Assembly: GCA_000091205.1 (NCBI GenBank)
Contig: AP006492.2
DNA: 64,000 nt
From: Cyanidioschyzon merolae
Lineage: Eukaryota
Reading direction: 5' to 3' (one strand)
The notes under the pieces were generated by a model. The model searched no databases. It was not told the origin of the DNA and worked only from the letters and a program-made list of their open reading frames with translations. Below, one piece after another: positions 5,129 through 51,122 of this stretch (positions are counted from its first letter, which is position 1; each line of letters opens with the position of its first letter). The position numbers and the translations under genes are program-made.

Positions 5129-5153
5129 TTTCTCAGCAAGACTGGCAAAAGAA

Positions 5154-5225
5154 AGGAGGCAGTCGGATTTGAACCAACGACCTATCGGACTGCAGCCGAT
5201 TGCTCTACCACTGAGCTATACCTCC
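5154..5225 (-). tRNA. tRNA-Cys (anticodon GCA)
   Basis: Reverse complement reads GGAGGTATAGCTCAGTGGTAGAGCAATCGGCTGCAGTCCGATAGGTCGTTGGTTCAAATCCGACTGCCTCC plus discriminator U. Cloverleaf with 7-bp acceptor stem, D-arm GCTC/GAGC, anticodon loop CU-GCA-GU, T-arm GTTGG/CCGAC with TTCAAAT loop. A T-rich run follows the 3' end on the coding strand. Confidence 0.85.
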
Positions 5226-5645
5226 TGAGCGGCTTGCGTGAAAATGAGCACAAATTTCTATATAAATACGTGTTCGACGTTGATCGCATCCGCGGCGCAG
5301 CCGCGAATCCCCGCTGGCGCACGCGATCCGCTGCAGGTGCTCGGCGCGTGGCGGCGCGCTGCGCCATCCCTTTGACAAAGCGAAGAAGCGACCTTGGACC
5401 CGAGCGTGCGATAATGATCAAGTTTCATGGGGGAACGCAAAGCGGTACGGTGCGCGCTTGCAACTGCCGTGGCGGTTTCGCTTGGAAAGTGAGCTCTGAG
5501 TCATAGGTGCTCCTCATGTTGTTTCCCTGCGCATGGCGTCGAGCATGAAGAAGCGTGGATAGATTTTTTAGTTTGATTTATGCGCGCAGCGAGACCTGGA
5601 CGCATAAAGATGCGCCCTCCTTCCTGAATGCAATGCAGGGCCGAA

Positions 5646-9226: not shown

Positions 9227-9706
9227 GCAGAGACTCTACACGGCGTACGGTATGCTCAGGTTAGGAACAAAGCAAGCACCGCGGAGACGGAGGTATGCTT
9301 GTGTGACGTGATTCGTCAATGGGTGCGCTTAAGTGACGAGTATCGGGAAAGCGACAAGTTCTGCAAGGAAACGCAACCCTACAAAAGAACTGTACGCCCT
9401 GCCTGCAAGTTTCGTTCTTCTTTAGGGACTCCCTGACGTTTCTTCCACGAATTGCTGTGCTAGTTCGTCGAACTCTGTCTCCGGCAGCGCTCTTAGAGTG
9501 TTTGCGGGAACGCAGCTGTCTGCGATAGTGCTGGACAAACGCGCAGGTGCCAGTAGAGCCAGTGTCCACCGAAAGCTCCGTGTGTCCTCGTATAGGAATT
9601 CTAGGACTGGCCAATTGATTCTGATAGTGGTTGTCTGGTTCATGAAGAACGACCGAATAAAAGCAAGCGGATCAGTTGCTGACATTTCGTGAAAAATGTC
9701 CTCAGT

Positions 9707-11506
9707 TATATCGATTAATGAAACGAGATTATTGTTCAGCAACTGCGTGGGAATACCATGCCTCGCGTGTCTATCCACACCGCTTCGTCCGCTCTAGATT
9801 GCCGAACGTGCCATACCAGTGACCGGCCTCGGGCAGCAATCCAATGCCTTGTCTCTGGGTCACTGGTTCTGCTCATCGAGAGTGCTCAGCGCCTCAGGGC
9901 AGTGCTCAAACCCAGTCCCAGACGAACTGATCGAATGTTCGCTCGACCCACAGCCGCTGGACGCCCCGGGAGCACGGAACATTGCCGGATGCTGATCGAC
10001 AGGTTCATGTCTCGGTACAGAAAAGTGCTTGCGCGCCTGGTTGCTGGTGCAGTTCCAAGGTGGCAAGCCTCTCGCCTTCGATTGCCTCGCCATCTGGCGT
10101 TCGGCCAGCATACCGCACACGGTATCGTGCATCCGACGCTGGTCCCGGCTCGTGTGCTCTACCGGTTTCAGCATGCATATGTTCTAGTCAGGCGCGTACG
10201 TCGTCATGAGGGCGTCAGTGAACGACCTTCGAAATCGATGCCTGCACTCACTTGAAGCGCTCTTCGACGGGGCACTGGAGCAACCGATGTTTGCTGGAGG
10301 ATGTTCATCGCGGTGGGCTACCACTCAACGACGCGACTTGCCGGTCGTTCCCTTTCCACAACCGCTGGACTAGGTGCCGAGTGCAAGACTACCGGCCTCC
10401 GCACAGACGAAACTGCAGGCTATCCGAGCACAGCGCCAGACACATCTGCCGTCGATTGTCTGTACAGGTCAGTCGCACGCTCGTGTGCTCTCTGAATGAC
10501 GCGCATAAACGCATCACCGTCTGCACAGTACAATACGACGCTGAGAGCGTCGCGATGCGCCCTGATGCCGTCATTCCACTTTGTGGTATGTCGCCTGGCG
10601 TCCATGATGCCCGGGCCCCGATGATGCCGCGCTCTGGAAGAATCCTGTCGCGGTGCCGATGGTGTCCCGAGCAGCCGCTGTGCTGCCGCACGAAGGTTTG
10701 ATCGAGAACGTCGAGGCGGGTAAGGACAGCTGGCTGCCGTGCGTACGGAACGCGCTCGAACAGCCGCTCGACGAGATGCGCTCCAGCGAGAGAGACGAGG
10801 GAAGCGCGAGCAAGTCGGCACACACGAAGCTTGAGGCCATCAGCGAATCTTTTCGTTTGGCCGTTGGTAGGCGACTGAACGGCTGCGTCACCACAAGCAC
10901 CGGTACTGCCGCCATTCAAGCTTGTCTCTTGTGTATGAAGTGCAGCTCGCGTCTCTCTGAATGCCGATACAAAGCTGTACCGGTTATTCCGAGAACAGTC
11001 TCATCCAGTGAGACGAAACCCCGTCCCTGCTGGAACCAGTGTTTGTGTTTCATGGGGAAGCTTAGCGAGCGAAGCTTAACGGGCGAGAGCTGCATACGGA
11101 AACATACTTCTTAGTACGAGTTCGTGTCTCTTCATCAATGCTCGTCTCAATAGAGCGGAAACTTCATATCCTGTCGCTTCTTTGACAAAACTGGTCAGCA
11201 AAAGTATGCTATAGAATGCGTTGTCGAGTGAGTGCGCAGCCGTATAGACAGCGTTTGCGAGGATCAGGGTAGGGTGCACGGCATCCGTTGCACGGACGAC
11301 GAGGACAGAGGATTCATCCGCCTACTGAGCGTAGAGTGACCGACTTGGACCAGTAATGTCGTTATCTCGCCAGCTAGCAGCGACAGCACAGAGTCTTTCC
11401 AGGACCGCTTCTCAAACCGAATAACACGTCCCGTTTGCTGAGTACCTGAAAGTAAAATAGTCTCAGATAATGTACTTGAACGTGTGTTCCGGAATTCTCT
11501 GATCTG
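9707..11506. repeat. Inverted repeat, left arm (1800 bp)
   Basis: Reverse-complement match to 16137-17936 with exact mirror symmetry. ORF pairs 9758-10255 / 17388-17885 and 11076-11279 / 16364-16567 are near-identical; every coordinate pair sums to 27643. About 97-98% identity is implied by a few amino-acid differences per ORF. Confidence 0.9.
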
Positions 11507-11740
11507 GATACGGCGCTTCGAGGATGCAGTAGTTTCTTGGTCCATGCTTTGATCGTGCACCTGGAATCGAATCGCCCGGGTGAGCGACACGCCCCGCTCG
11601 ACCAGATTTCGTTTGCTTGGAGACGCTACAGGAGCCAGAGCCTCGTGCCCTGTGCGGTACAGGGCGGACTTGACGCTTGTTTCGCACGAGTTGAGCTTTA
11701 CGCTGACGAGCGAGCCACCGGCTTGCGTCGCTTAACAAGG

Positions 11741-12313
11741 ATGGGTGCGAACGCGTCCACTTTGCTGGACGACGATATAACAGAAATAGTGGCCTCGTCG
11801 TCTTTCTCGAAAGATGAAATCGAGCAACTGTATAGCCGCTTTCAAAAGCTAGACCGCAACGGATCCGGAACGATCGATGCTTCAGAGTTCCTGATGATTC
11901 CGGAGCTCGCCATGAACCCACTTGTGCCGCGTATTGTCCAGCTTTTTGACGGTGTTAACTTCAAAGAGTTTGTGCGGCTGCTCTCGGCGTTCGGAAAAAA
12001 CGCACCTCGGGAAGCACGGATTGACTTCTTGTTCCGCTTTTACGACGTTGATGGGGATGGGGTGGTCAGCGAAGCAGACGTCAACAGTATTTTTCGGTTG
12101 CTCGTTGGCGAAAACCTGGACGACGCCACCTTGCGACGAATCGTACGCCAGGCTATGCTGGACTTTGGCGCTGGCCTAGAAGCTCTGGATGGCGGAGACG
12201 AGAGCGAAGAGCTGAACGGCTGTAGCGTTCAGTGCCGACCGCTCACGAGAGAGGACTTCTGTCGAAAGCTTCAAAACGTCGAACTCGATCGCATTTTACA
12301 AATATCCGTTTAG
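11741..12313 (+). CDS. Calcineurin B-like EF-hand Ca2+-binding protein (N-myristoylation motif MGxxxS)
   Basis: MGANASTLL... start. EF-hand loops DRNGSGTIDASEF and DVDGDGVVSEADV. PELAMNPLVPRIVQLFD matches the calcineurin B PELQQNPLVQRVIDIFD block. ATG at 11741 confirmed in sequence. Confidence 0.75.
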   Translation: MGANASTLLDDDITEIVASSSFSKDEIEQLYSRFQKLDRNGSGTIDASEFLMIPELAMNPLVPRIVQLFDGVNFKEFVRLLSAFGKNAPREARIDFLFRFYDVDGDGVVSEADVNSIFRLLVGENLDDATLRRIVRQAMLDFGAGLEALDGGDESEELNGCSVQCRPLTREDFCRKLQNVELDRILQISV

Positions 12314-12668
12314 GACTTCATTCCGGTGACCGCATTCGCTATGCTTCGTCAATCGAGCAGGGCATGCACCCCCAGGAGCCGCCTACGTGGCTACGCCTCC
12401 CCGCTCATGCTCTCTTTTTCAAGGCGATATCATTGGTGACCAGGCGAGCTGGTGCGTGCCCAGTGGTGCGTATCCACGAATACAACGCGCGCTCTCTACA
12501 ACAGCGTCTAGCGGCAGCCTCGGTTGTGGTGCTTTCGGAGTCGGCGTGCGGCGTGCACGAGGCACTGTCACCCTTCAACAAGCTCAGTTTAGAGGAGCCT
12601 CACAGGTCTCTTGCGGGACCAAAGTTCAGAGCCGCAGTCTCGCGCACTGGAGGTCGCCTTCTCTCTCT

Positions 12669-12697
12669 GTGTGTGTATGTATGTGTGTGTGTGAGCG
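12669..12697. repeat. (GT)n/(GTAT)n microsatellite
   Basis: gtgtgtgtatgtatgtgtgtgtgtg. Shorter in paralogous copy at about 46269-46290. Confidence 0.8.
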
Positions 12698-13144
12698 ACG
12701 CACAGCGGCCTCGCGAAAGGACGCGAGACCCCGCTCTGCGTACATTTACCACAACGATGCGCCTTCCTCGACGAACGTACATAACATAGGGGCATGCTAG
12801 AGTCTCCAGCAGAGTCGTCCTCGCTTTACATTCCAAGGATGTGTACTGCCGTTACATCCATACGTGCGCAGCCGGTGATACCACAGCACGTCATCGTGCA
12901 CAGGCAGGCACACGAGCCGCTCTGTCTCGGGTCCGCAGCTGAGGCACTGTCGCCTCAGAGGTCCAACAGACGCGGATACCGTTCCGCAGCCGCAGAGCAG
13001 GTCGAGCGCCCCAGAGGCAGCGCAGCGGCAACTGCTCCGAGATGGAGCGCTCCTGATGATGCCCGCTACAGATCGACTGTTCAATAAATGAATGAATGGA
13101 ATGCCACCTGGTCGAAGATGTTGCCGAACGGTTCACTAATCCTG

Positions 13145-14821
13145 TCACGACGCTACGACAACTGGTACGGCCTCCGATGTGCAAGCGGTGTCAGTGCCTG
13201 CCCCAGTGCCTGCTCCAGTGCTTGCGTCCGCAACACGCCAACGCGCACGAATAACACTGTCCGCTGGGTATATCGTCGGCAAGTAGATGATCTCGTCGCT
13301 GTGCACGGTGCGCACCCGAGTCCAGTCCACAGTGGTCGCCAGCACCGCCAAATAGCACATCAAATGGTTGATCGCATAGTTCCGCCCGACACACATGTGC
13401 GGACCGCAGCCAAACGTCAGGAAATGCTTCCGGTACTTTTGCTCCTCCTGCCGCGGCGGCAGCATCCGCTCCGGATCGAAGCGTTCAGGTGACGGAAAGC
13501 CCTGCATGCACGCAGTCCAGAGACTCGGCACCACGAGCGCACCTCGCGGCACCTCGTAGCCGTTCGGCAGCTGCACCCGCTTGCTCGCAACCTGCGGAAC
13601 CATCACAGGCGGCGGCCGGAAGCGCAGCACCTCCAGAACGACCGCGCGCGTGTACACCATCTGCTCCAGCAGCTCGTAGGTGATCGGCTCGTCGTGCGGG
13701 CGCAGCCGCTGTTGCTCTTCGCGCACCCGCTGCAGCACGTCGGGTCGCTCGGCCACCAGCACAGTCGTCCATACCAGCGACGCTGTCGACGCATCCTGAG
13801 ACGCAAACAAAAAGTCCAGCATGGCGTCCGCCATCTCGTGGTCCGCGCTGTACTTGGGCGGCGCCCGGTTCTCGCGCTTCGCAGCTGCAACCTCCTCCAG
13901 CACGGACACCGTCCAAAAGTCCAGCAGGCACTGCGGCTCCGCCTCGGCGTCCTTCCGGAAACGCTCCTTCGACGCCCGTACACACGCAGTCAGGTCCCGT
14001 AGTACACGCTCCCGCGCCCGTATCGCACGCCACAGGCCCGTCCCAGGCAGCGCTAACGGGAACGAAAGAAAACCCTGCGTGATCAGCAGATAGTCCGCAC
14101 AGAAGCGCTCCCGATCGCGCAGGTACGGACCCACAAACACCGTCTGCGACGTCCGCAGATTCAGGTCGCGGATGCGCGGGCGCACCTCAAATGCTGCCGC
14201 GGTGCCGTCCGTGCCGCGCCCCGACAGCCACGCCGCCAGGTGCTCGCCAATCAGGCGCTCGTGGATGCTCACGTACATGCCTAGCGCCTTGGGCGTGAAC
14301 AGCCGCAGAAAAGACTGCCGCAGGAGCTTGTGCTCCTCGCCGCTCTTGAAGGCAATATTGTTCCGCCCGAGGATCCGCCAGCCGTTCGGGTGCAGTATCA
14401 TCTCAAACGCGTGCGGGCCGTTCTCGCTGAGCACGTACCGGCTGAGGTCCGTGTCCGTCACGAAAAGCACGAAGAAGCCCGCCAGCGCATTCCAGCTCAG
14501 GCCGCACGGGTTTAAGCGCCGCTGCCGCTCCCAGAACCCGTACGGCGACAGCACCATTTCCACGATGCTCCCGATGAGCGGAATCACAAACCGCGGGCCT
14601 GGGATTCGCCCGTAGCCCGCCCAGCGCCGCAGTCGCACCTGCTCTGCGATCGCGAGGCCGAGCACCAGCAGCGCAACGTACGCCAGCGCACGGCTGGCGG
14701 TACCCCAGCCGGCGATCCCCAGCGCAGCGTCCGCGCGGCGCAGGCAGTGCCGCGCCACCGATACCACCCACTCGGCTGCTGCCACAGGCGTCGAGCGCGT
14801 AAGCGAGGCCGTCTCAATCAT
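13145..14821 (-). CDS. Cytochrome P450 monooxygenase (membrane-anchored)
   Basis: 558-aa ORF. Heme-binding signature FGCGPHMCVGRNYA, PERF motif (PERFDPER), and an N-terminal hydrophobic anchor ALAYVALLVLGLAIA. ATG confirmed at 14819-14821 on the minus strand. Confidence 0.85.
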   Translation of the reverse strand: MIETASLTRSTPVAAAEWVVSVARHCLRRADAALGIAGWGTASRALAYVALLVLGLAIAEQVRLRRWAGYGRIPGPRFVIPLIGSIVEMVLSPYGFWERQRRLNPCGLSWNALAGFFVLFVTDTDLSRYVLSENGPHAFEMILHPNGWRILGRNNIAFKSGEEHKLLRQSFLRLFTPKALGMYVSIHERLIGEHLAAWLSGRGTDGTAAAFEVRPRIRDLNLRTSQTVFVGPYLRDRERFCADYLLITQGFLSFPLALPGTGLWRAIRARERVLRDLTACVRASKERFRKDAEAEPQCLLDFWTVSVLEEVAAAKRENRAPPKYSADHEMADAMLDFLFASQDASTASLVWTTVLVAERPDVLQRVREEQQRLRPHDEPITYELLEQMVYTRAVVLEVLRFRPPPVMVPQVASKRVQLPNGYEVPRGALVVPSLWTACMQGFPSPERFDPERMLPPRQEEQKYRKHFLTFGCGPHMCVGRNYAINHLMCYLAVLATTVDWTRVRTVHSDEIIYLPTIYPADSVIRARWRVADASTGAGTGAGTDTACTSEAVPVVVAS

Positions 14822-15546
14822 TGCTGTCGCAGCTGCGCTCGATGCTCAAGCACGCGCACGCGCCAGCGAGTACGGCCGCGATCGCGAACGCGAACGCGTG
14901 TGTCTACGACTAGGAGGCGCGCGCCCGTGTGCTTCAGCAGCGTACGCGCCTTTGGACAGCAGCAAACGCTGACCGGTCCCGCTCAAGCGCTGCGCGTTTC
15001 GCCAAAACGTATACACAAACGGCACGCACTTGGTTCACGAGCAAAGCGCTCTGCTCGGTGCCGCTCCAAAATAGTCTCCAGCAACCTCTCGGGGGCGTCT
15101 GCGCCCCAGCACGGCACGCGCAGCTCAGCAACGCCTCGCTCGACGGGGTCTCGCTCAGCCTACCGAGTTCAAGCACGGCTTAGACTAGCCTTGCCCTTGC
15201 TGTGATTCAGTCCTTGCTTTCCCTCGCCGCACTAGACTCAGACTCGTGCGGCACAGCTGCGCACCGTCACGCCGGGTCAAGCGCGCTCGATCGTGTCAGA
15301 GCCCGAGGCAAGCGTTCACACGTGTACACACACACAGACACAAACACACTGATGCAGACAATAAAAACAGTGATATCGACAGGACCAAACCAGAGATGCA
15401 CACACACACTTCGACCCTGTTTGGAATACACACAAGACGGGTGTTCCCCGAAATACTGCTACACTTGATTGTGTTGAAACGCGCCTTCACCGAATAATGA
15501 AATGCGCGGCATCGAGCAGCACGCATCGACGACGCGACAGCCGCAA

Positions 15547-15547
<1 letters not shown>

Positions 15548-15622
<75 letters not shown>
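15548..15622. repeat. (GCGT)n microsatellite, about 19 units, alternating purine-pyrimidine (Z-DNA prone)
   Basis: Tandem gcgt units seen directly. Paralogous tract at 49137-49181 has about 11 units. Confidence 0.9.
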
Positions 15623-15623
<1 letters not shown>

Positions 15624-15739
15624 ATCCATAGACCGCTCGCCTTCAGACGTAGGGCAGCGAGGCACCCGGTCGATGCGGATGCGTCACGCGGGGCAATGCG
15701 CGCCACCACGCATCGATTGCGCTGCCGCTGAGGCCTGTT

Positions 15740-15892
15740 GATGATGATGATGATGGTGATGATGGTGATGCTTGGGAGCGAGGCGGGGAGTCGCTGTGCT
15801 GCGTCGCCGACGCTGCTGGCTACACGATCGCGGGAGGGGGGGGGGTTTGTGTTGATGCTTCTCTCTCTCTCTCTGTGTGTGTGTATGCATCT
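15740..15892. repeat. Compound simple-repeat cluster: (TGATGR)n, G10 run, (CT)n(GT)n
   Basis: tgatgatgatgatgatggtgatgatggtgatg; gggaggggggggggtttg; ctctctctctctctgtgtgtgtgt. Lies upstream of the minus-strand P450. Confidence 0.85.
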
Positions 15893-16136
15893 AACATCGT
15901 GCAGCGTCCCGTAATGGCACCAGATGGTGCAGTCGACGGGGTACGCTGATTTCCCGCAGGCGATGCCCGACATTACGTAGTAGGAAGAATGCCCCACAGG
16001 ATATGCAACGCTTTGTTATTTTCGAACTCGACTGTGTATGACCTCGAGCGAATTGCAAGTACCCTCAATTGATGGAGATGTGGAAGGGAAAAATCATGCG
16101 GAAGGCTCGATTTGCGCATGATGCTCACGTTTTACT

Positions 16137-17936
16137 CAGATCAGAGAATTCCGGAACACACGTTCAAGTACATTATCTGAGACTATTTTACTTTCAGGTA
16201 CTCAGCAAACGGGACGTGTTATTCGGTTTGAGAAGCGGTCCTGGAAAGACTCTGTGCTGTCGCTGCTAGCTGGCGAGATAACGACATTACTGGTCCAAGT
16301 CGGTCACTCTACGCTCAGTAGGCGGATGAATCCTCTGTCCTCGTCGTCCGTGCAACGGATGCCGTGCACCCTACCCTGATCCTCGCAAACGCTGTCTATA
16401 CGGCTGCGCACTCACTCGACAACGCATTCTATAGCATACTTTTGCTGACCAGTTTTGTCAAAGAAGCGACAGGATATGAAGTTTCCGCTCTATTGAGACG
16501 AGCATTGATGAAGAGACACGAACTCGTACTAAGAAGTATGTTTCCGTATGCAGCTCTCGCCCGTTAAGCTTCGCTCGCTAAGCTTCCCCATGAAACACAA
16601 ACACCGGTTCCAGCAGGGACGGGGTTTCGTCTCACTGGATGAGACTGTTCTCGGAATAACCGGTACAGCTTTGTATCGGCATTCAGAGAGACGCGAGCTG
16701 CACTTCATACACAAGAGACAAGCTTGAATGGCGGCAGTACCGGTGCTTGTGGTGACGCAGCCGTTCAGTCGCCTACCAACGGCCAAACGAAAAGATTCGC
16801 TGATGGCCTCAAGCTTCGTGTGTGCCGACTTGCTCGCGCTTCCCTCGTCTCCCTCGCTGGGGCGCATCTCGTCGAGCGGCTGTTCGAGCGCGTTCCGTAC
16901 GCACGGCGGCCAGCTGTCCTTACCCGCCTCGACGTTCTCGATCAAACCTTCGTGCGGCAGCACAACGGCTGCTCGGGACACCATCGGCACCGCGACAGGA
17001 TTCTTCCAGAGCGCGGCATCATCGGGGCCCGGGCATCATGGACGCCAGGCGACATACCACAAAGTGGAATGACGGCATCAGGGCGCATCGCGACGCTCTC
17101 AGCGTCGTATTGTACTGTGCAGACGGTGATGCGTTTATGCGCGTTATTCAGAGAGCACACGAGCGTGCGACTGGCCTGTACAGACGATCGACGGCAGATG
17201 TGTCTGGCGCTGTGCTCGGATAGCCTGCAGTTTCGTCTGTGCGGAGGCCGGTAGTCTTGCACTCGGCACCTAGTCAAGCGGTTGTGGAAAGGGAATGACC
17301 GGCAAGTCGCGTCGTTGAGTGGTAGCCCACCGCGATGAACATCCTCCAGCAAACATCGGTTGCTCCAGTGCCCCGTCGAAGCGCGCCTCAAGTGAGTGCA
17401 GGCATCGATTTCGAAGGTCGTTCACTGACGCCCTCATGACGACGTACGCGCCTGACTAGAACATATGCATGCTGAAACCGGTAGAGCACACGAGCCGGGA
17501 CCAGCGTCGGATGCACGATACCGTGTGCGGTATGCTGGCCGAACGCCAGATGGCGAGGCAATCGAAGGCGAGAGGCTTGCCACCTTGGAACTGCACCAGC
17601 AACCAGGCGCGCAAGCACTTTTCTGTACCGAGACATGAACCTGTCGATCAGCATCCGGCAATGTTCCGTGCTCCCGGGGCGTCCAGCGGCTGTGGGTCGA
17701 GCGAACGTTCGATCAGTTCGTCTGGGACTGGGTTTGAGCACTGCCCTGAGGCGCTGAGCACTCTCGATGAGCAGAACCAGTGACCCAGAGACAAGGCATT
17801 GGATTGCTGCCCGAGGCCGGTCACTGGTATGGCACGTTCGGCAATCTAGAGCGGACGAAGCGGCGTGGATAGATACGCGCGGCATGGTATTCCCACGCAG
17901 TTGCTGAACAATAATCTCGTTTCATTAATCGATATA
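16137..17936. repeat. Inverted repeat, right arm (1800 bp)
   Basis: Mirror of 9707-11506. See left arm. Confidence 0.9.
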
Positions 17937-19586
17937 TCTACGGATATCGCGTAAAGTGTACAGCAAGTATTCTTGTTAATACCCGTGTCAGACTAACACC
18001 GAACGGGTCTACCTAATGAAACGCGCCTGCAAAGTTTCGAGACGCTTTCAACATCCATCAGCACCAGCTTCCGCGGGCTTTGTCTGCGACTGCTTCCTTT
18101 TCCTCTGTATTATTTCCAGCTTTTAGTATGTCAGACTCTCGCGTACCTGCAGCATTGCTGTCAGAAGTCGATGGATGATGATGATCGCGTACAAGTCCCG
18201 AGTTCCTAGTTTCCGTTAGTTGCCAACGGATTCGAGACTCATACGGAAGTTGCGATCTACGCTTCGCTTGCCATTTTCACCTTCTTTTCATAGAGTCATA
18301 CTGCTCCCTGCATAGTGATGAGACTTGCCTTGGACAGGTGTTCCCCCAAGTCCATCAGATCTCCTTGACTGAGGGCTATACTCTAGCGCACGAAAGCTTG
18401 CTTCGCCATTCGATACACGCCCTCTGGCGCGGCAGCGCGAACCCTCGATGCCACCCTCCGTCTGTGCACCCCGTCGTCGTAACCTAGAATCACAGGGGTT
18501 TCCTGGGTGATCCCATTAGCGAGTATGCTCTCTGCCACCCGTGCACGAGCACGCTCCCTCATTCGATGAAGGATTCGGGAAATGCGGTATTGTCCATGAT
18601 GAAACAAGAAGTACCGTTTGGAAAAATCTGGTCTCTACAAGGAGCAACGGAACTTCGATCCGTCTATGCTGCCATCTCGCAAAACAGTGACCCTCTCTCT
18701 AGTGAGTGTGTTTGTTGGAATGACTGAAGCTGGAGTTCAAGGCCCTTTTACGTGCAAGCAGATGAAAAGGGAGCCTCTTGGAGCAGATCCCGTGAGATCT
18801 ATAATGCTGCTCTCGGATGCTGCTGCGTCGATGAGCGCAACGAAAGGAGTGTATGTCCTGCGAACAGAGCCAATTATTCGATGTGAAATGTTCAGTAAAT
18901 TTTTGGTATGGGCTTGTGAAAAGGTCGTCAATAAACGAAGCGCAGCGGTTTTTGTGGTCACTTGGGCGGCATGAATCGCCGTGCCAACCGTTTGCCTTGA
19001 AACCAAAACGTTGAAAACTTGACGCATGCGTGATTCGAGCGCGCCGCACGTAGAGTAAAGAGAAGCATGGGGGCTTGTGCATGTGACTCAGATAATGAAA
19101 TCGATTATTTTAAGAACACTTGTTCCGGAGCATGGCAAATCATGGTCATTCCGGTGACGTAACAACTTCCAGCGGCGAGGCGTTGAGGAAGTCACCCCGA
19201 AAAGACGACCATTCATCGATGAATTAGGCGTAAAACGTATGCAGGTATTGCTGCACTCGGAATCTCGCGGCTTTATATCCTAAAAAATCTCGGGGAAATT
19301 TGAATATCGGGAACAGAGATACCAGGTGAGAGCTCCATGTAGGTCTCGTTAAGCTTTTGGGCAAGAATAACCAGGGTCCCGAGCGGCGCCTCCTTATCTG
19401 TCCGCGGGATCCTGCATATCAGCGATACCGCAAGTTCGAGCATTTAACTGCTCCACATTGTTTCTGGACGCAAGATCCCGTTGCGAGCCCACGACATGCG
19501 ACAACGACGGCAACAACGGCAATCAGCATTACCGCGACGAAGATCGGCACTGCCCTCGTCAGGAGTGATGGCACCTAGCTGCAAGT

Positions 19587-28878: not shown

Positions 28879-28926
28879 AAATACCGCCCCAGCAGCGCCT
28901 GGGCGGACAAGCGGCCGCGATCCGGC

Positions 28927-38786: not shown

Positions 38787-41402
38787 CGTCTCCGTGGCAC
38801 TGGCCAGAAGCGCCGTTCGGCCCAACACTCATTTCAGCTTCGTCCAAGGTAAAGCTGGGGTTAGGGGTACCGGTTCGAATGAGTGTAACTTGTTCCAGCT
38901 CACAGACTCCGTGGAGTTGTCTTTAGCTATCGTTTGCGACCGTCCGCTTCGCCGGAGTGTGCCTTTGACGGACCTGGAGCTCTTCTGGTATCTCTTCTTG
39001 AACCAGCGGTCGAAGTCGTTTCGGGAGACGGTCTGCTACGTCAGCAAAGAAAGGGCCGCGACTTTTAGCTCGAAGAAAGCGAATCCTCCGCGCCTCCGCT
39101 GCGCGTCGCCAACGTGGCGTACGGTTATTCAGTATCGGAAACGGCGGTCGGTGGATCCGCATTCCGATGACCCCGAGCACCCCTAAGAGCATGGTGCGTA
39201 TAACGTAAAGTTGCAAGTCCGCGTGATGATGTAATTGTCCCTGTGAAAATGCGTCCACCATGGGACCGTCGAGCAGCGCGGAAAAACGCTGCCCAGGGAC
39301 TCGGCGCCTTCTGTGCACCAGCTGCTGACCCCTCGCCACACGCGCAGACAAGCCCTCGGCCGCAGCGTCGCGGCGACAAAACCTTCCACAAGTGCCAGCA
39401 GCTTTGTAAGCAGTTGAAAAGAGACCCGCGAACGCCAGTGTTTGGCTGGTTTTTCCGAAAAGCATCCGTGCGTCAACTCCTCTAGTCCAAAGTTTGCAAG
39501 CTGTACGCACACAGTATAAAGTTCCTTAGAACGCAGCACCAGCATGAGCGCTTGCCGTAGGCGCCGCCAGTTTGAGATCCGATCACCACCGTCGCGCAAC
39601 GCCGTGGCACAGGCACTCGCGGAGGCGTCTTGTTCTTATGCAGAGGCAGTGCTGCGGCAACGGTGCATCCTGGGTACCGGTACGTACCTGCGGTAGGCTT
39701 GGCATCTGGTGGTTCGCTCGACTGTGCAATCCGTTATGCCAACGCGAATACTAGTCCGATGTGACTGGAACCCGAACGTGCTTAGATCGGAGCGGGAGTG
39801 TCTCCACGGCGTCCAGGTCAACTGCGCATCCCGGGGATTCTTGTAAGCGTTGTCGATTGTGCATCATAGGGAAAGCCGGCGCTGGCATAGACGCAAGTCG
39901 TCTCGCAGCTCGCTGGATCCAAAGTAGAATCCGCACAGACGGACAAGACCAGGGCTGATAGAAAATTGTCAAATACGGTGAAGCGCTGCAGCGATCTCGT
40001 TTTTGCTGATCGATATACTCAGCAGTATCAGCTCATAGAACACGCTTATCGCGCATGAATCTCCAGGGGGAATGATTCCAGGTACAAGTTTCAACCGTGC
40101 TCTAGATTTGCTGCATTGTGTTTGCCGTACAACCTTTGTGCTTTGCTCCAGCGAGTAACCGATCCCCTCTGTCCTGACCGCTGATTGTTTACTTCGATAG
40201 CATTCAGCGTTTCAGCACAACGCTCACAATGACTGTTAAACGATTCCCTCGAACGTCCGCTTAACGTAAAGCCACCGAACGCTCTGGAGGCACGAGACAT
40301 TCCCGGATGTCGACTGCAGATGCTGCCGTCGACACAAACATATCAGACAGGACTTTTCCTCAGGAACGGAAACTCGATTGGCCCGGTGAATCTCCAGATG
40401 CCCAGCGCACCGCGTACGTTGCACGGTCTCAGCGTGGCGTTGCAGTGCCTCCAGCCATGGGGGCGGCTTCCTACAACGCTCGCACCCTTGGGGTTTCCCG
40501 GTCAGTCTTGACGATCTTGCACCGTAAAAAAATCCAAGGTCACATTCGATGATCGTCAGGTCTGCCTGCACACAATTTGTTTTGATCGACATAACATTTC
40601 AGTGAACCAGGGATCCTCGATTTCTTAATCGAAAGAAAGTACACACGAGCTCGGGATCCTCGAGTGCGCGAAGGATCTCGGCATCCAGTAGAGCGTGGCA
40701 TAGTGTTCGCGCTGAAAACGGGAAAGGTTTTCGGCATTTTCGAAAGGTTACCTTCTAGGCGGACGCTCCCGCGAACCGCTCGAGTCTACCAGGCTAGTGA
40801 ATCATCTACCTCTCCAATGGCAGGTGCTTTAGTGATATCTGAGCAGCAACTCGTCCGCTACGCAGTTCACTCTGGGACAAAGAGCGGGTAGATTGCGCCT
40901 GGACGTCGCTCTGGCCGCTGTAGACTCCCTGCATATTGCTTCGCGATGCGGCACGCAGTACGTCTCTCCGTACAGTTAGCAGGCTCCCAGAATGATTTTG
41001 TACTCCGACCCCATGTCGGGTGATCCACGCGTCGAGCCGGCTACCCCAGTGGTATGGCAGAGCCGTACTGTTTCCGTGAGGCATCGGCTCCAGCAGTATA
41101 AGCGCCAAGGCGGGCGCTCAAAGCAAGCAATCGCCGCGCGATTGAAGGTACAAAACGGCCAGCACCTCCGAGAGAAAATATGGGATATAGAGCTGGAAGT
41201 TAGGGCACAACATAAAGAGCGATTTCTCGTCTGCCAATAGCTATCCCGCAATCTGGAGTCCATAATCAATGAAAATGCTTTGTCACTGCGGCCCGCGGCG
41301 GCCGTGCGTTACGCCGCGCAGTACCTCGGGAATTCAATTTCCGACCGACAAACGAACTGGCTGCTGCTTCTCAGTATTTTCTGTCGCCGCTGAGACGCTT
41401 CC

Positions 41403-44730: not shown

Positions 44731-46742
44731 AGAAAACTTGCTCCTTCGTTAACCAGAGTACTGGCAGCGCGTTACAAGCCGTCGACCAGCAACAGCGCGC
44801 TGCATATGTGTTTGCGCCGTCGCGCCGGCGGCGGGTTCATTCGCGCATCGTCCAATATTGAAATCTGGACATTATTGTCCCAAAAGGCTCTCTTGACATC
44901 GCACGAAGTTGTCACGTGACATGTTTTGGCGATGCACGAAGGCATCGCGCGGCGATGAGATTCTTGAAACGCTGATCCGCTGCTTTTTGCAGTGCCGGCG
45001 CTGGAAACAAGCGCGCAGCTGCCTAGAATGCGAAAAGTAACGGGCCTCTCCGAAGGAACTTATTGTTGAGGAATTTGCGAGTTGGCGGAACAATGGATGC
45101 TTCACCAGGCGCTGAGAACCAGTGCGAAATTGGGGATCGCGGGTCAGTGCAGACGTTCTGCTCTCCCAAAAAATAGAGCGGCGATGCGTCCGCACCGACG
45201 CTCATTCGCGCCACCTTCCGCTGCAGAGCACACAGGAAACGCAGAAACACCGAGCTCGACCAGTCCCAGAGGCTGCCATAAACATCGGAAACACAGGTAA
45301 TATTCTGGCGATTGCAGTTTTACTTCATGGGATGCTGGGCTCGGGGAAGGATCTCGGAATGGCTACTTTCGAGGCTACAGCAGCAGGTTCCGCGCTCCGT
45401 ATTGGTGTTGCGGCATAGCGTTCCACGATATCGGTACCCGGAAAACGTCAAAACTCAGCACTGCGCAAGAAGATTACATGAAGAACCAAGTCGGCTTCGT
45501 TTGCTTCCAGAAAATCAACTGCAGCCTGAGGACATTCTGCTCCCATTCGTTCCTCAAGTGATAGGCTCGTTCCGGAATAAATCGATGGGCATGGCACACG
45601 CTACACTGTGGTGCTGCATGGCACTGCTTCCATGTAGATGGCATCTGCGATCAAGGCGATGCCGGAAGCCGCAGGCAGCAGCACTGGTCAATCGTCGGCA
45701 ACATCGAGATAACCATGGATTCAAACGCATGCTCCTGCTCTGGTGACAAAACAAGGATTTAATACGGCGGTTCCGGCTACGAAGAGGTAGACATTCTGTG
45801 GGACAAGCCCGCGACTTTCATGTCTTGAGTCGATTTCGCGAAAAATTGCGGTTTTCCAACATGCTGCATTATTCAACGGAAGAAAGGCATAGCCGTTCCC
45901 GTCTAGTGAAGAACCAGGACTTCATTCCGGTGACCGCATTCGCTATGCTTCGTCAATCGAGCAGGGCATGCACCCCCAGGAGCCGCCTACGTGGCTACGC
46001 CTCCCCGCTCATGCTCTCTTTTTCAAGGCGATATCATTGGTGACCAGGCGAGCTGGTGCGTCCCCAGTGGCGCGTATCCACGAATACAACGCGCGCTCTC
46101 TACAACAGCGTCTAGCGGCAGCCTCGGTTGTGGTGCTTTCGGAGTCGGCGTGCGGCGTGCACGAGGCACTGTCACCCTTCAACAAGCTCAGTTTAGAGGA
46201 GCCTCACAGGTCTCTTGCGGGACCAAAGTTCAGAGCCGCAGTCTCGCGCACTGGAGGTCGCCTTCTCTCTCTGTGTGTGTATGTGTGTGTGAGCGACGCA
46301 GAGCGGCCTCGCGAAAGGACGCGAGACCCCGCTCTGCGTACATTTACCACAACGATGCGCCTTCCTCGACGAACGTACATAACATAGGGGCATGCTAGAG
46401 TCTCCAGCAGAGTCGTCCTCGCTTTACATTCCAAGGATGTGTACTGCCGTTACATCCATACGTGCGCAGCCGGTGATACCACAGCACGTCATCGTGCACA
46501 GGCAGGCACACGAGCCGCTCTGTCTCGGGTCCGCAGCTGAGGCACTGTCGCCTCAGAGGTCCAACAGACGCGGATACCGTTCCGCGGCCGCAGAGCAGGT
46601 CGAGCGCCCCAGAGGCAGCGCAGCGGCAACTGCTCCGAGACGGAGCGCTCCTGATGATGCCCGCTACAGATCGACTGTTCAATAAATGAATGAATGGAAT
46701 GCCACCTGGTCGAAGATGTTGCCGAACGGTTCACTAATCCTG

Positions 46743-48413
46743 TCACGACGCTACGACAACTGGTACGGCCTCCGATGTGCAAGCGGTGTCAGTGCCTGCC
46801 CCAGTGCCTGCTCCAGTGCTTGCGTCCGCAACACGCCAACGCGCACGAATAACACTGTCCGCTGGGTATATCGTCGGCAAGTAGATGATCTCGTCGCTGT
46901 GCACGGTGCGCACCCGAGTCCAGTCCACAGTGGTCGCCAGCACCGCCAGATAGCACATCAAATGGTTGATCGCATAGTTCCGCCCGACACACATGTGCGG
47001 ACCGCAGCCAAACGTCAGGAAATGCTTCCGGTACTTTTGCTCCTCCTGCCGCGGCGGCAGCATCCGCTCCGGATCGAAGCGTTCAGGTGACGGAAAGCCC
47101 TGCATGCACGCAGTCCAGAGACTCGGCACCACGAGCGCACCTCGCGGCACCTCGTAGCCGTTCGGCAGCTGCACCCGCTTGCTCGCAACCTGCGGAACCA
47201 TCACAGGCGGCGGCCGGAAGCGCAGCACCTCCAGAACGACCGCGCGCGTGTACACCATCTGCTCCAGCAGCTCGTAGGTGATCGGCTCGTCGTGCGGGCG
47301 CAGCCGCTGTTGCTCTTCGCGCACCCGCTGCAGCACGTCGGGTCGCTCGGCCACCAGCACAGTCGTCCATACCAGCGACGCTGTCGACGCATCCTGAGAC
47401 GCAAACAAAAAGTCCAGCATGGCGTCCGCCATCTCGTGGTCCGCGCTGTACTTGGGCGGCGCCCGGTTCTCGCGCTTCGCAGCTGCAACCTCCTCCAGCA
47501 CGGACACCGTCCAAAAGTCCAGCAGGCACTGCGGCTCCGCCTCGGCGTCCTTCCGGAAACGCTCCTTCGACGCCCGTACACACGCAGTCAGGTCCCGTAG
47601 TACACGCTCCCGCGCCCGTATCGCACGCCACAGGCCCGTCCCAGGCAGCGCTAACGGGAACGAAAGAAAACCCTGCGTGATCAGCAGATAGTCCGCACAG
47701 AAGCGCTCCCGATCGCGCAGGTAAGGACCCACAAACACCGTCTGCGACGTCCGCAGATTCAGGTCGCGGATGCGCGGGCGCACCTCAAATGCGGCCGTGG
47801 TGCCGTCCGTGCCGCGCCCCGACAGCCACGCCGCCAGGTGCTCGCGAATCAGGCGCTCCTGGATGCTCACGTACACGCCTAGCGCCTTGGGCGTGAACAG
47901 CCGCAGAAAAGACTGCCGCAGGAGCTTGTGCTCCTCGCCGCTCTTGAAGGCAATATTGTTCCGCCCGAGGATCCGCCAGCCGTTCGGGTGCAGTATCATC
48001 TCAAACGCGTGCGGGCCGTTCTCGCTGAGCACGTACCGGCTGAGGTCCGTGTCCGTCACGAAAAGCACGAAGAAGCCCGCCAGCGCATTCCAGCTCAGGC
48101 CGCACGGGTTTAAGCGCCGCTGCCGCTCCCAGAACCCGTACGGCGACAGCACCATTTCCACGATGCTCCCGATGAGCGGAATCACAAACCGCGGGCCTGG
48201 GATTCGCCCGTAGCCCGCCCAGCGCCGCAGTCGCACCTGTCTGCGATCGCGAGGCCGAGCACCAGCAGCGCAACGTACGCCAGCGCACGGCTGGCGGTAC
48301 CCCAGCCGGCGATCCCAGCGCAGCGTCGCGCGGCGCAGGCAGTGCCGCGCCACCGATCCACCCACTCGGCTGCTGCCAGAGGCGTCGAGCGCGTAGCGAG
48401 GCCGTCTAATCAT
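46743..48413 (-). CDS. Cytochrome P450 paralog; N-terminal anchor region disrupted by clustered 1-bp deletions (possible pseudogene or anchor-less variant)
   Basis: 556-aa ORF, identical to the 13145-14821 product over the catalytic domain (FGCGPHMCVG). Residues about 10-60 read in an alternative frame, WDRRLGYRQPCAGVRCAAGARPRDRR instead of the hydrophobic anchor. At least six single-base deletions occur within about 200 bp at 48230-48420. Confidence 0.6.
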   Translation of the reverse strand: MIRRPRYALDASGSSRVGGSVARHCLRRATLRWDRRLGYRQPCAGVRCAAGARPRDRRQVRLRRWAGYGRIPGPRFVIPLIGSIVEMVLSPYGFWERQRRLNPCGLSWNALAGFFVLFVTDTDLSRYVLSENGPHAFEMILHPNGWRILGRNNIAFKSGEEHKLLRQSFLRLFTPKALGVYVSIQERLIREHLAAWLSGRGTDGTTAAFEVRPRIRDLNLRTSQTVFVGPYLRDRERFCADYLLITQGFLSFPLALPGTGLWRAIRARERVLRDLTACVRASKERFRKDAEAEPQCLLDFWTVSVLEEVAAAKRENRAPPKYSADHEMADAMLDFLFASQDASTASLVWTTVLVAERPDVLQRVREEQQRLRPHDEPITYELLEQMVYTRAVVLEVLRFRPPPVMVPQVASKRVQLPNGYEVPRGALVVPSLWTACMQGFPSPERFDPERMLPPRQEEQKYRKHFLTFGCGPHMCVGRNYAINHLMCYLAVLATTVDWTRVRTVHSDEIIYLPTIYPADSVIRARWRVADASTGAGTGAGTDTACTSEAVPVVVAS

Positions 48414-49136
48414 TGCTGTCGCAGCTGCGCTCGATGCTCAAGCACGCGCACGCGCCAGCGAGTACGGCCGCGATCGCGAACGCGAACGCGTGTCTCTACG
48501 ACTAGGAGGCGCGCGCCCGTGTGCTTCAGCAGCGTACGCGCCTTTGGACAGCAGCAAACGCTGACCGGTCCGCTCAAGCGCTGCGCGTTTCGCCAAAACG
48601 TATACACAAACGGCACGCACTTGGTTCACGAGCAAAGCGCTCTGCTCGGTGCCGCTCCAAAATAGTCTCCAGCAACCTCTCGGGGGCGTCTGCGCCCCAG
48701 CACGGCACGCGCAGCTCAGCAACGCCTCGCTCGACGGGGTCTCGCTCAGCCTACCGAGTTCAAGCACGGCTTAGACTAGCCTTGCCCTTGCTGTGATTCA
48801 GTCCTTGCTTTCCCTCGCCGCACTAGACTCAGACTCGTGCGGCACAGCTGCGCACCGACACGCCGGGTCAAGCGCGCTCGATCGTGTCAGAGCCCGAGGC
48901 AAGCGTTCACACGTGTACACACACACAGACACAAACACACTGATGCAGACAATAAAAACAGTGATATCGACAGGACCAAACCAGAGATGCACACACACAC
49001 TTCGACCCTGTTTGGAATACACACAAGACGGGTGTTCCCCGAAATACTGCTACACTTGATTGTGTTGAAACGCGCCTTCACCGAATAATGAAATGCGCGG
49101 CATCGAGCAGCACGCATCGACGACGCGACAGCCGCA

Positions 49137-49137
49137 A

Positions 49138-49181
<44 letters not shown>
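49137..49181. repeat. (GCGT)n microsatellite, about 11 units
   Basis: Paralog of the 15548-15622 tract, shorter. Confidence 0.9.
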
Positions 49182-49182
<1 letters not shown>

Positions 49183-51122
49183 ATCCATAGACCGCTCGCC
49201 TTCAGACGTAGGGCAGCGAGGCACCCGGTCGATGCGGATGCGTCACGCGGGGCAATGCGCGCCACCACGCATCGATTGCGCTGCCGCTGAGGCCTGTTGA
49301 TGATGGTGATGATGGTGATGATGGTGATGCTTGGGAGCGAGGCGGGGAGTCGCTGTGCTGCGTCGCCGACGCTGCTGGCTACACGATCGCGGGAGGGGAG
49401 GGTTTTGTGTTGATGCTTCTCTCTCTCTGTGTGTGTGTGTATGCATCTAACATCGTGCAGCGTCCCGTAATGGCACCAGATGGTGCAGTCGACGGGGTAC
49501 GCTGATTTCCCGCAGGCGATGCCCGACATTACGTAGTAGGTATTGGACCAATGTGCACGCGCACCGCTGCAGCGGGTGCTGTATCCTACTGCAGTATAGC
49601 TCATCCTTGAATTGCCACATTGGTTGATCATCGCTGAAGAACACTTTTAGCGACCAATAGTGTCTATCCAGCGCTGCTTCAGTGCCGTAACTGGTCATTC
49701 CGCACACGCGTCCAGTGCTTTTGCGGCCGACAGTCACTGTAGGCGCCGTATCTGCATACGCTTGCTCTCATGTTTTAAAGCCGCATGCCGCCCAGAATTA
49801 GATGCCCTTTCGTGCTGTTGCCGAGTTGTGCGGGCGTCTTGCGTGTAGACCAGCCCACCGAATCATCATGCCACTGTCGTCCTAGTGAATGCACCATCAT
49901 CGAAACCCGAATGGATCACGCATTGGACACTGCGAGCGTTTCCGAAGTATCTCGTGAAGATCAACAACGCAGGCGAACGCGAAGGTTGCGCTTTCCCGGT
50001 GGCGGGGCAACCTCCAGGGTGACGAAGCACTTTACCCCGTGACAAATTGAAAAGCTTGTGCATACGATGGTACCTTCTGTCCAGCTGATGCCTGCAGAGC
50101 AACTGCTGTAATGTTATAGTTCGCGCTCATGGTCCTGATGGCGGAATAAGAGACCATAGGTATCCTTTTTACCCGTGATCTAGGGGTACACTCACAAGCA
50201 ACGCATGATATCACGACGGGAGCGTGCTTGACACACACCATACTCATCGGTGATTCTTCTGCGCTAACGGTCGCTCTCATCGAGCCGGGCCTGCGTTGGC
50301 ATGCATTCGCCATCTTCATCGACCGAAATCGCATTCACGCGTATTGCAGGATTCTCCTCTTTGTCCCGCAACAATAGGATGTAAGTTTCTTTGCATTCAG
50401 GTCCGTCCAGTGTATCCGACAACCATACCCGGTCGTGAACAACACAACGCCTGTCTGATTTCTTTGGAAACAGTTTTCAGGCAGGATTTGTACCATGCTG
50501 CGAAAGCAAATCAGACCGAGGGAGCGCATGCGAAAGCGTCCCAGCCAGCGTGCATTCCAAATGAGGTATCTTCATGAGATCGGCGTCCGAGTCCCGTCGA
50601 CATGGAAATGCACAGATTTGTCTAGTGGTGTGCCAGGATGATTTTACGGTTTCCGGCGGCACGCTGCCTTCCGGAGCGGCAGCTCTGCAGCGTATAGCGC
50701 AGAGATTTCTGCAAACCACTCAAGTCCTTGCATGGAGCGCAGGCTTACGCCCAATAAATGTTCCTTGACATTGGGAGGCACTTTCATCGTCTGGTTCCAC
50801 AACTGCGGTCGCTAGGTAACCTCGATTGAATGCATCTATCCGACTGGGGTGCTCTACAGGCCCCACGCTTGCTGCTCGAGAACACGAGCTTTCCGAGACA
50901 TCGATCATGAATACGAGTAACGTTAGAAAGGCTGCCAAGACCTTCTTTTCGCGCGCTCGAGTGTCGAAAAGAAACCAAGTCGTTCAGTCGTGTGACTGCC
51001 ACCAGGCACTACACGCGGGACCCCCTCGGACCTGGCTTCGGCACTGTGCTCTGCTGCGCGTGAACGTACGAGCTTATGTTTCTAGACGAACGACGACCTG
51101 TAGCCGATTACCAACGCAGTAC

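Follow-up and report, generated by a model that had tools for sequence, protein, structure and literature searches.

Inverted neighbouring copies of a dispersed non-coding repeat, probably kept alike by gene conversion, bracket an ancestral gene pair in Cyanidioschyzon merolae

Here, we report the analysis of a long inverted repeat in a 64,000-nt stretch of the Cyanidioschyzon merolae genome (GenBank assembly GCA_000091205.1, contig AP006492.2), hereafter the window. The arms are two complete copies of a dispersed non-coding repeat, which we denote family X, and together enclose a calcineurin-B-like EF-hand gene and a CYP710 cytochrome P450 gene, which form an ancestral tail-to-tail pair rather than acquired cargo. 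We put at roughly 70% the probability that the arms are neighbouring family X copies kept 99.1% identical by repeated arm-to-arm gene conversion. The structure is unexceptional, a low-copy inverted repeat in a region rich in repeats and prone to rearrangement.

BLAST alignment of the left arm with the reverse complement of the right (9707-11506 versus 17936-16137) spans 1,800 nt with 16 mismatches and no gaps. A preliminary, sequence-only reading had placed the inverted repeat correctly and had underestimated its identity, at 97-98% compared with the measured 99.11%. The mismatches are confined to 9763-11038, and the inner 468 nt are identical between the arms. The high-identity tract stops abruptly at both ends: beyond these boundaries, flank alignments score no better than shuffles, and residual similarity is limited to an 11-nt edge, on which ground we reject an eroded remnant of a larger, older duplication. 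The outer terminus of the arms is TATATCGATTAATG, as already described from the letters, and the earlier remark that the flanks lack a target-site duplication (TSD) is confirmed by inspection: between the left flank, ending ...CCTCAGT, and the right flank, beginning TCTACGG..., there is no direct repeat of any length, and neither the left nor the right arm is individually surrounded by a TSD. Internal subrepeats or periodicity in the arms do not rise above shuffles; an internal spacing of ~400 nt, hinted at by two short repeats, finds no support in alignments compared with shuffles, and a foldback-type element is rejected because the arms lack internal subrepeats. The window contains no AATGGGGGG repeats that would indicate telomere proximity, and a literature search found no paper describing an inverted repeat at 9707-17936.

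The inverted repeat is real and not an assembly artefact. The window belongs to strain 10D, three of its encoded proteins being 100% identical to BAM80372.1, BAM80373.1 and BAM80381.1, and the 10D genome is finished (PMC1955436). Independent support comes from metagenome and SRA assemblies, in which at least eight independently assembled environmental contigs from at least seven samples cross the junctions between left flank and left arm (J1), left arm and loop (J2), loop and right arm (J3) and right arm and right flank (J4), always in the same orientation. Five contigs (L007, L009, L012, L020 and L021) contain whole arms with both junctions; among these, L009 and L012 carry the right arm plus both its junctions, and L020 extends from the left flank across the complete left arm and the loop to a point inside the right arm. 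Three others (L015, L022 and L023) traverse the inner junctions. A flipped form of the spacer was not seen, all five informative contigs showing the same orientation.

The spacer, or loop (11507..16136; 4,630 nt), is covered in its entirety, together with the left arm, by contig L020 and contains two convergent genes, each with one arm on its 5′ side. The first (11741..12313, plus strand) encodes the EF-hand protein BAM80372.1, for which calcineurin B gives the best matches in a comparison with solved structures (E 1e-27 to 1e-35). The second, which we denote P450-A (13145..14821, minus strand; BAM80373.1), belongs to the CYP710, or sterol C-22 desaturase, family, and upstream of it lies a (TGCG)19 microsatellite (15547..15622); a (TGA)n tract occupies 15739-15770. 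The calcineurin B-like gene, P450 and microsatellites recognized by the sequence-only reading are thus borne out by matches and coordinates. They fully explain the loop, and no transposase is found in either loop or arms. The same reading had missed a direct duplication of one loop segment: 12312..15984, which starts inside the EF-hand stop codon, recurs at 45916..49540 with 98.2% identity. This second duplicon has no flanking X arms and carries P450-B (46743-48413, minus strand; BAM80381.1).

Comparison with relatives shows that the gene pair is ancestral. In Cyanidium caldarium, the EF-hand and CYP710 genes lie tail-to-tail and adjoin the same left-flank genes as in 10D, and in Cyanidiococcus the pair occupies the same locus; arms are absent from both. 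Searches with blastn, tblastx and an nhmmer profile found no arm homology to syntenic Cyanidiococcus or Cyanidium DNA. The earlier idea that these host genes are transposon cargo is contradicted by these orthologous loci, which hold the pair without arms.

The arms themselves have relatives elsewhere. Collinear copies of the whole arm occur at three unrelated loci (contigs L027, L028/L029 and L030/L031; nhmmer E about 1e-60). Family homology starts at ~9695/9696 of the window and ends at ~11503-11510, so that at its outer end it runs 11 nt past the near-identical tract, as far as 9696 and 17947. On the basis of this homology, the inverted-repeat alignment and, for the left arm, the lack of a coding signal, we define the left arm as a complete family X copy at 9696..11506 (plus strand), consisting of the 99.1%-identity tract (9707-11506) and an outer edge that is not homogenized (9696-9706). 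The right arm is a second complete copy, inverted, at 16137..17947 (minus strand), with its 99.1% tract at 16137-17936 and its diverged edge at 17937-17947. Pairwise identity among family X copies is 55-59% and star-like, and the other whole-length copies measure 2.2-3.1 kb, compared with 1.8 kb for the arms. Full HMMER searches match the arm to 12 further diverged ORF clusters, of which one is situated on a different chromosome (1.25 Mb), upstream of a 10D gene; we reject the 12 as genuine proteins, as they are junk-like ORFs called by gene callers on other repeat copies. Profile and sequence comparison also identified in the window an old, truncated third copy, X3 (40013..40314, plus strand), which retains only the outer ~300 nt. 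X3 shares its outer end with the arms, is inverted relative to the right arm and is 62% identical to the arms in a 151-nt ungapped core. Family X copies elsewhere stand singly, and some lie between the 3′ ends of convergent genes. Across the JGI metagenomes, the arm terminus occurs in only two outer-flank contexts, which argues against a pool of young X copies. The alternative, raised beforehand, that the arms are found only here thus holds for copies of at least 99% identity and fails for the ~57% copies at other loci. Neither the dispersed relatives of the arms nor the 11-nt outward extension of homology had been noticed from the letters.

The arms are non-coding. That their ORFs carry no recognizable domains is confirmed by the absence of Pfam matches; in addition, a search with all arm ORFs joined into one 1,102-aa sequence yielded no protein homologue, and a codon-position pattern is absent, GC by position and cross-copy conservation both being flat. 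Together, these observations rule out coding arms. Rfam gives no match, whether the cut-off is the gathering threshold or E<=1, and we therefore reject a structured RNA; RNAalifold on the 151-nt core, for which only two distinct sequences are available, gives 11 compensated pairs versus 13 broken. A relic of a lost gene is likewise rejected, tblastn with the neighbouring Cyanidium genes (EMP24b, the 302-aa protein, DDHD and LOG) having detected no trace of them in the arms.

The arms evolve in concert. Seven complete arms contain 42 variable sites, none of which consistently separates left from right arms. Both 10D arms stand apart at 10737, 11232 and 11245 from every one of the five complete environmental arms, left and right alike; at 11449, 11464 and 11471, both arms of sample 3300009503 carry C, A and C, and both 10D arms carry A, C and T. 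As the environmental arms were assembled from short metagenome reads, a procedure that may mix the two arms, the sites robust to mixing are those at which both arms agree within a strain, and these are few (3-6). The element edges point in the same direction, over a span of 11 nt only: the outermost 11 nt, which in both arms match the family consensus, differ at 4/11, so that identity rises from 7/11 to 99% inside the element, and the arms are 99.1% identical to each other versus about 57% to other members. Conversion also acts nearby, on the CYP710 duplicates, which lie at orthologous positions in 10D and Cyanidiococcus and are 98-99.9% identical within each species, as against about 78% between species. 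C. merolae carries out homologous recombination efficiently, and routine gene targeting in it relies on this (PMC3764038). Of the earlier proposal of an inverted duplication maintained by gene conversion, the maintenance therefore stands, and the duplication of an arbitrary segment does not, as each arm is a whole repeat member.

In the mechanism we propose, two complete, oppositely oriented X members, one in the upstream intergenic region of each convergent gene, would copy sequence from each other across 4.6 kb by intrachromosomal gene conversion, as other family members drifted to about 57% identity. The converted tract would take in nearly all of the shared homology, ending 11 nt before the outer end of the element. 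As a by-product, homologous recombination between the arms could invert the 4.6 kb spacer. Conversion between copies of ~57% identity should be strongly suppressed, suggesting that the pair was similar from the start, through either same-time insertion or local copying.

It is possible, though we consider it unlikely, that one X copy was copied once nearby in inverted orientation, by transposition, retroposition or template-switch repair, and that the 0.9% divergence measures the time elapsed since. The high-identity tract starts and stops no more than about 12 nt from where the element does, a match to be expected had the element been mobilized as a unit. X3 and the copy upstream of a YchJ-like gene share an outer end and vary in length, like 5′-truncated retroposons. 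Moreover, the 0.9% arm-to-arm divergence is about equal to within-species diversity, the same arm differing between strains by 0.7-1.3%; one copying event dating back roughly to the coalescence of the strains, followed by a few conversions, would look similar. Against copying that recent, however, neither arm is flanked by a TSD, the arms differ at 4 of their 11 outermost positions, no JGI metagenome contains a third near-identical (master) copy, and the rest of the family is old, its members being about 57% identical, and devoid of coding capacity. In addition, every strain sampled has both arms, and the concerted substitutions indicate exchange after the pair was established. We infer that the 99% identity reflects conversion and not copying in the very recent past. 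The divergent strain L006 (97.4% identical) was considered for dating and rejected, its differences being concentrated in the retroelement repeat and not in unique DNA.

More doubtful is a broader role, in which X copies would be the recombination substrates reshuffling the locus, the arm pair a long-maintained and still active flip-flop inverting the calcineurin-B/CYP710 block, and repeat-mediated inversion a main driver of change in gene order in these otherwise minimal genomes. Two adjacent gene blocks are oriented differently in C. merolae and Cyanidiococcus, and each of their three boundaries is occupied by a family X copy; the three copies alternate in orientation (left arm, plus; right arm, minus; X3, plus). 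The right arm and X3 are mutually inverted around the block that is derived-inverted in 10D, X3 lying at the far end of this block, which is inverted relative to the related species. This positioning would be consistent with a causal role of X in the inversions. The 4.6 kb spacer has the orientation of the outgroup Cyanidium caldarium; for this reason, and because the arms are a dispersed repeat and not unique breakpoint sequence, we reject an origin of the arms by staggered-break inversion.

It is improbable that the structure is a functional module, with the arms serving as common upstream regulatory DNA for co-regulation or as an invertible switch. Each arm does lie 5′ of one gene, 235 nt from the start of the EF-hand gene and 1.3 kb from that of P450-A, and the arrangement is kept in all sampled strains. 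However, X copies between convergent 3′ ends show no consistent promoter relation, flipping would leave the proximal 1.8 kb of upstream DNA of each gene unchanged, the informative contigs (5/5) are in one orientation, and P450-B functions without an arm. We infer that the structure has no regulatory role.

A very large terminal-inverted-repeat (TIR) DNA transposon, whose 1.8 kb termini would mobilize the calcineurin-B-like and P450 genes as cargo, had been suggested from the geometry, which alone fits, with long inverted termini around genes; this origin is highly improbable, given that there is no TSD and no transposase, that the arms are non-coding, that the gene pair is ancestral and armless in both Cyanidium caldarium and Cyanidiococcus, that single X copies elsewhere are not paired around cargo and that the metagenomes contain only one such structure. 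Least credible is an assembly fold-back or chimera absent from the organism, which has nothing in its favour except a general suspicion of perfect palindromes and is refuted by the finished 10D sequence and the independent contigs that cross J1-J4 (at least eight, from at least seven samples), L020 among them.

C. merolae serves as the "simplest" photosynthetic eukaryote, almost without redundancy, and a locus with several kb-scale near-identical repeats is therefore of practical interest as a site that can mislead gene targeting or short-read mapping. [quoted passage not shown] It reveals no new kind of mobile element or mechanism.

The closest parallels differ from the arm pair in instructive ways. 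Human Y-chromosome palindromes have arms of 9 kb to 1.5 Mb that undergo arm-to-arm gene conversion. They share with the X arms near-identical inverted arms, a unique spacer, sharp boundaries and concerted arm evolution; Y palindromes, however, carry genes in their arms, whereas the X arms are 1.8 kb non-coding repeats with genes in the spacer, and the X pair implies no gene-preserving role. Like the inverted low-copy repeats that mediate inversions through non-allelic homologous recombination, X copies sit at synteny breakpoints; in contrast to such repeats, the X arms showed no inversion polymorphism of their 4.6 kb spacer. The same window contains an inverted pair of non-LTR retroelements (24585-27896 and 33912-37223; 3.3 kb, 97.8% identity) that encloses ClpS and a 357-aa protein and, like the X arms, consists of kb-scale inverted copies of a dispersed element bracketing host genes. 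The retroelement copies, in contrast to the X arms, have reverse-transcriptase homology and young copies (93-96% identical) in the window, and recent retrotransposition thus explains their pairing. The interspersed repetitive element of C. merolae 10D has 253 copies with a mean of 3.2 kb, making up about 5% of the genome (Nozaki et al. 2007, PMC1955436); transcription is among its characteristics, and its defining feature is a truncated ORF with weak similarity to WSSV WSV486 (PMC1955436). That paper describes no inverted near-identical pair, such as the X arms form, and the arms are shorter than its mean, the copies seen here ranging from 1.8 to 3.1 kb. Both repeats, however, are specific to the lineage, lie dispersed in intergenic DNA, measure a few kb, lack an intact gene and occur as many diverged copies on different chromosomes. 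By this description, and not via the WSV486-like ORF, family X is probably the 10D interspersed repetitive element of 253 copies.

The only inverted pair that a repeat search returned between 8 and 20 kb comprises a left arm (plus orientation) at 9696-11506 and a right arm (minus) at 16137-17947, separated by a spacer of 4,630 nt (11507-16136). Its high-identity tract, 9707-11506 against 17936-16137, spans 1,800 nt at 99.11% identity in BLAST, with 16 mismatches and no gaps. Repeat search, BLAST and base-by-base comparison all bear out the arm coordinates and description of the sequence-only reading; the inverted repeat stands, at an identity higher than the 97-98% given there. In the base-by-base comparison the tract ends sharply on both sides, and beyond its boundaries the aligned flanks score no higher than shuffles. 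All 16 mismatches fall within 9763-11038, and the inner 468 nt of the arms are identical. The outer terminus of the arm is TATATCGATTAATG, and the flanks, …CCTCAGT and TCTACGG…, form no target-site duplication on base comparison, as had been noted.

Each arm is a complete copy of a non-coding repeat, old and dispersed, whose family we denote family X, because whole-arm collinear copies occur elsewhere and the family profile begins at the outer arm edges. As the initial inspection noted, ORFs in the arms overlap one another, here in several frames, and Pfam recognises no domain in them; their GC content by codon position does not follow the pattern of real 10D genes, the concatenate of all of them has no protein homologue, and Rfam has no match in the arms (the sole Rfam/ARAGORN match in the window is a tRNA-Cys (GCA) at 5153-5226, minus strand). 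Sensitive self-comparison of the window revealed a diverged, partial arm copy (X3) at about 40.0-40.3 kb, with a core of 151 ungapped nt at 62% identity (Smith-Waterman score 37 versus 14.7±1.2 for dinucleotide shuffles; nhmmer E 6.5e-12). This gap-free stretch is the best-conserved part of the X3 match (9841-9991, 17652-17802 and 40159-40309); its consensus fold has 11 compensated versus 13 broken pairs, from two distinct sequences only. A full HMMER search of 1.84 billion representatives with a 165-aa ORF of the arm as query yielded 12 more clusters of junk-like ORFs (32-50% identity), all from metagenome/SRA assemblies, one of which is a read-through into the YchJ-like gene of 10D (BAM82522.1) on another chromosome. 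A search for other arm copies had been proposed as a check; three loci fetched from these sets each contain a whole-length relative collinear with the entire arm (nhmmer E ~1e-60), with homology starting at window position ~9695 and ending at ~11503-11510; extra internal DNA brings these copies to 2.2-3.1 kb. Pairwise identity among X copies is 55-59% and star-like, and their conservation lacks codon periodicity. Matches to the family profile begin at 9696 in the left arm and at 17947 in the right arm, and the profile also picks out X3, which has the same outer end as the arms, at 40013-40314; it has no match in syntenic Cyanidiococcus or Cyanidium DNA.

The near-identity of the two arms most probably (roughly 0.7) reflects gene conversion acting on two oppositely oriented dispersed-repeat copies, one of the options raised from the sequence: conversion between the arms, bounded by shared homology, would keep two X copies near-identical. 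At either end, the high-identity tract stops no more than ~12 nt from where the element itself ends, making an arbitrary segmental duplication unlikely; either the copied unit was the element itself, or copying was bounded by pre-existing homology. A weakness of the conversion reading is that conversion cannot start at only 57% identity, so the two copies had to resemble each other already at the beginning. One rather recent copying event at this locus, followed by little conversion, is an unlikely account of the pair. Both arms retain the element's outermost 11 nt (9696-9706; 17947-17937), with 10/11 and 8/11 matches to the consensus, but they differ from each other at 4 of these 11 positions before identity reaches 99.1%, which argues against fresh transposition, as a new copy would be identical there too. 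Seven complete arms (both from 10D, three environmental left and two environmental right) have 42 variable sites and no fixed left-versus-right difference. The two 10D arms share one base, and the five complete environmental arms all share a different one, at each of 10737, 11232 and 11245. Sample 3300009503 has C, A and C at 11449, 11464 and 11471 in its left and right arm alike, where the two arms of 10D have A, C and T. Such sites are robust, because mis-assembly between arms cannot yield within-strain agreement of both arms. A scan with the 24-nt terminus found no third near-identical copy in any JGI metagenome, and the remaining family members are old. Gene conversion is thus favoured by the edge divergence, the concerted sites, the lack of fixed arm differences and the lack of a third near-identical copy, with the further weaknesses that the edge argument draws on 11 nt only and that only a few concerted sites are informative. 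Homologous recombination works efficiently in C. merolae (PMC3764038).

The spacer, or loop, carries two convergent genes with one arm 5′ of each. The calcineurin-B-like EF-hand gene (11741-12313, plus strand) has calcineurin B as its best solved-structure matches, and its protein is a 100% match to BAM80372.1 of 10D, annotated 'similar to calcineurin B subunit'. P450-A (13145-14821, minus strand; microsatellites upstream) is a CYP710 gene, a sterol C-22 desaturase homologue, with its closest named relatives in Cyanidiococcus and Cyanidium. It and the second CYP710 copy, P450-B (46743-48413, minus strand), are 100% matches to BAM80373.1 and BAM80381.1 of 10D, respectively; cluster look-up and pairwise comparison place all three proteins on one 839,707-bp 10D chromosome. 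BLAST shows that 12312-15984 of the loop is directly repeated at 45916-49540 (98.2% identity), 33.6 kb apart in 10D, the loop duplicon starting inside the EF-hand stop codon. CYP710 is duplicated at orthologous positions in C. merolae and Cyanidiococcus: one copy neighbours the EF-hand gene, and Myb and S10 enclose the second; Cyanidium caldarium has one P450 copy. Because both genera have the second copy at this Myb/S10 site, the duplication predates the Cyanidioschyzon/Cyanidiococcus split. Despite this age, the paralogues are 98-99.9% identical within species and ~78% between the two, and the Cyanidiococcus copies form a 5,286-nt inverted repeat at 99.92% identity (JANCYV010000002.1, 770981-776266 and 790793-796077). 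Such a pattern amounts to long-term concerted evolution of a sterol-desaturase gene pair, so conversion between gene copies demonstrably operates in the region. At 48230-48420 (minus strand), P450-B of 10D has six separate 1-nt deletions in the first ~190 nt of its CDS, absent from P450-A and from two environmental copy-B contigs (L001, L017); they shift and then restore the frame, leaving BAM80381.1 with a scrambled N-terminus without a hydrophobic membrane anchor, and look like either reference sequencing errors or incipient pseudogenisation.

Orthologous loci bear on the suggestion of a giant terminal-inverted-repeat (TIR) transposon with host-gene cargo. The window order is 228aa(-) / left arm, EF(+), P450-A(-), right arm / PGM(-) … ClpS(+), 357aa(-) … DUF1995(+), 233aa-like(-) / 351aa(+), Myb(-), P450-B(-), S10(-), PABP(+), and that of Cyanidiococcus yangmingshanensis is 228aa(-) / P450-1(+), EF(-) / 233aa-like(+), DUF1995(-), 357aa(+), ClpS(-), PGM(+) / 351aa(+), Myb(-), P450-2(-), S10(-), PABP(+). 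From the same left-flank genes, Cyanidium caldarium continues with EF(+), P450(-), then 233aa(+), DUF1995(-). The EF/CYP710 pair, present in both relatives at loci where the family X profile finds nothing, is thus ancestral at this site rather than imported cargo, which, with the missing target-site duplication, speaks against the transposon. Its orientation in 10D is that of the outgroup, with the block inverted in Cyanidiococcus, and the neighbouring PGM-to-DUF1995 block is inverted in 10D.

The 24-nt outer-terminus scan of JGI metagenome contigs returned seven contigs, with outer flanks of two kinds only, the window's left and the window's right. We labelled the junctions J1 (left flank/left arm), J2 (left arm/loop), J3 (loop/right arm) and J4 (right arm/right flank). 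Contig L007 (11.9 kb, 99.6% identical) extends from the left flank across the complete left arm to include the EF-hand gene; L009 and L012 both span the complete right arm, with the P450 upstream region on one side and the right flank on the other; L020 starts 230 nt inside the right arm, crosses the loop and all of the left arm and reaches the left flank; L021 has loop, left arm and left flank; L022 and L023 have symmetric ends inside both arms; and L015 crosses J2. With independent contigs crossing junctions, every informative one in the reference orientation, an assembly fold-back is excluded and the structure is real and well supported; the 10D genome is finished telomere to telomere (PMC1955436).

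Other repeats abound in the window. A non-LTR retroelement occurs in three copies at 93-98% identity (24585-28878; 33912-37223, inverted; 61966-64000, inverted and cut off by the window edge); its ORFs match 'retroelement, alive' proteins of 10D and include reverse-transcriptase domains, and two copies, 97.8% identical over 3.3 kb, lie as another large inverted repeat around ClpS and the 357-aa gene. Further old dispersed families (59-64% identity; 17933-19537, 231-694 and 61080-61937, and 1390-2006 and 11083-11753 of two other X loci, L027 and L030) occupy the intergenic DNA that adjoins the right arm on its right-hand side, with further occurrences in the window and at unrelated loci. A ~570-nt segment at 69% identity is common to the DNA upstream of the 351-aa and photolyase-like genes (40715-41284, 56719-57283), with shorter related pieces at retroelement copy ends (28567-28764, 62074-62284). 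A 1.2-kb direct duplication (21889-23064 and 32575-33754; 82% identity) contains 75-nt tandem repeats, overlaps a 350-aa ORF without a Pfam domain and gives weak, high-bias matches to the X-family profile. Just upstream of ClpS lies an array of ~12 27-nt tandem units (28868-29191). The large intergenic regions of the locus are largely decayed repeats.

With inverted copies of 1.8 kb separated by 4.6 kb, the pair offers a substrate on which the spacer could be inverted. Such a flip would leave the proximal 1.8 kb of upstream DNA of both genes as before; none of five informative contigs has a flipped spacer. Two blocks are oriented differently in 10D and Cyanidiococcus, and the three X copies (+, -, +) lie at their three boundaries; the right arm and X3 face in opposite directions on either side of the block derived-inverted in 10D, an arrangement that fits repeat-mediated inversion via X copies on positional evidence only. 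The 10D genome is reported to contain 253 copies of a ~3.2-kb interspersed element, 5% of the genome, defined by a WSV486-like ORF (PMC1955436); family X is probably this element, a putative assignment. The structure, neither a giant TIR transposon nor an artefact, chiefly documents gene conversion and a locus rich in repeats and prone to rearrangement, within a genome known for simplicity. In kind it is nothing unusual: two members of a known dispersed-repeat type form an inverted low-copy repeat and evolve in concert.
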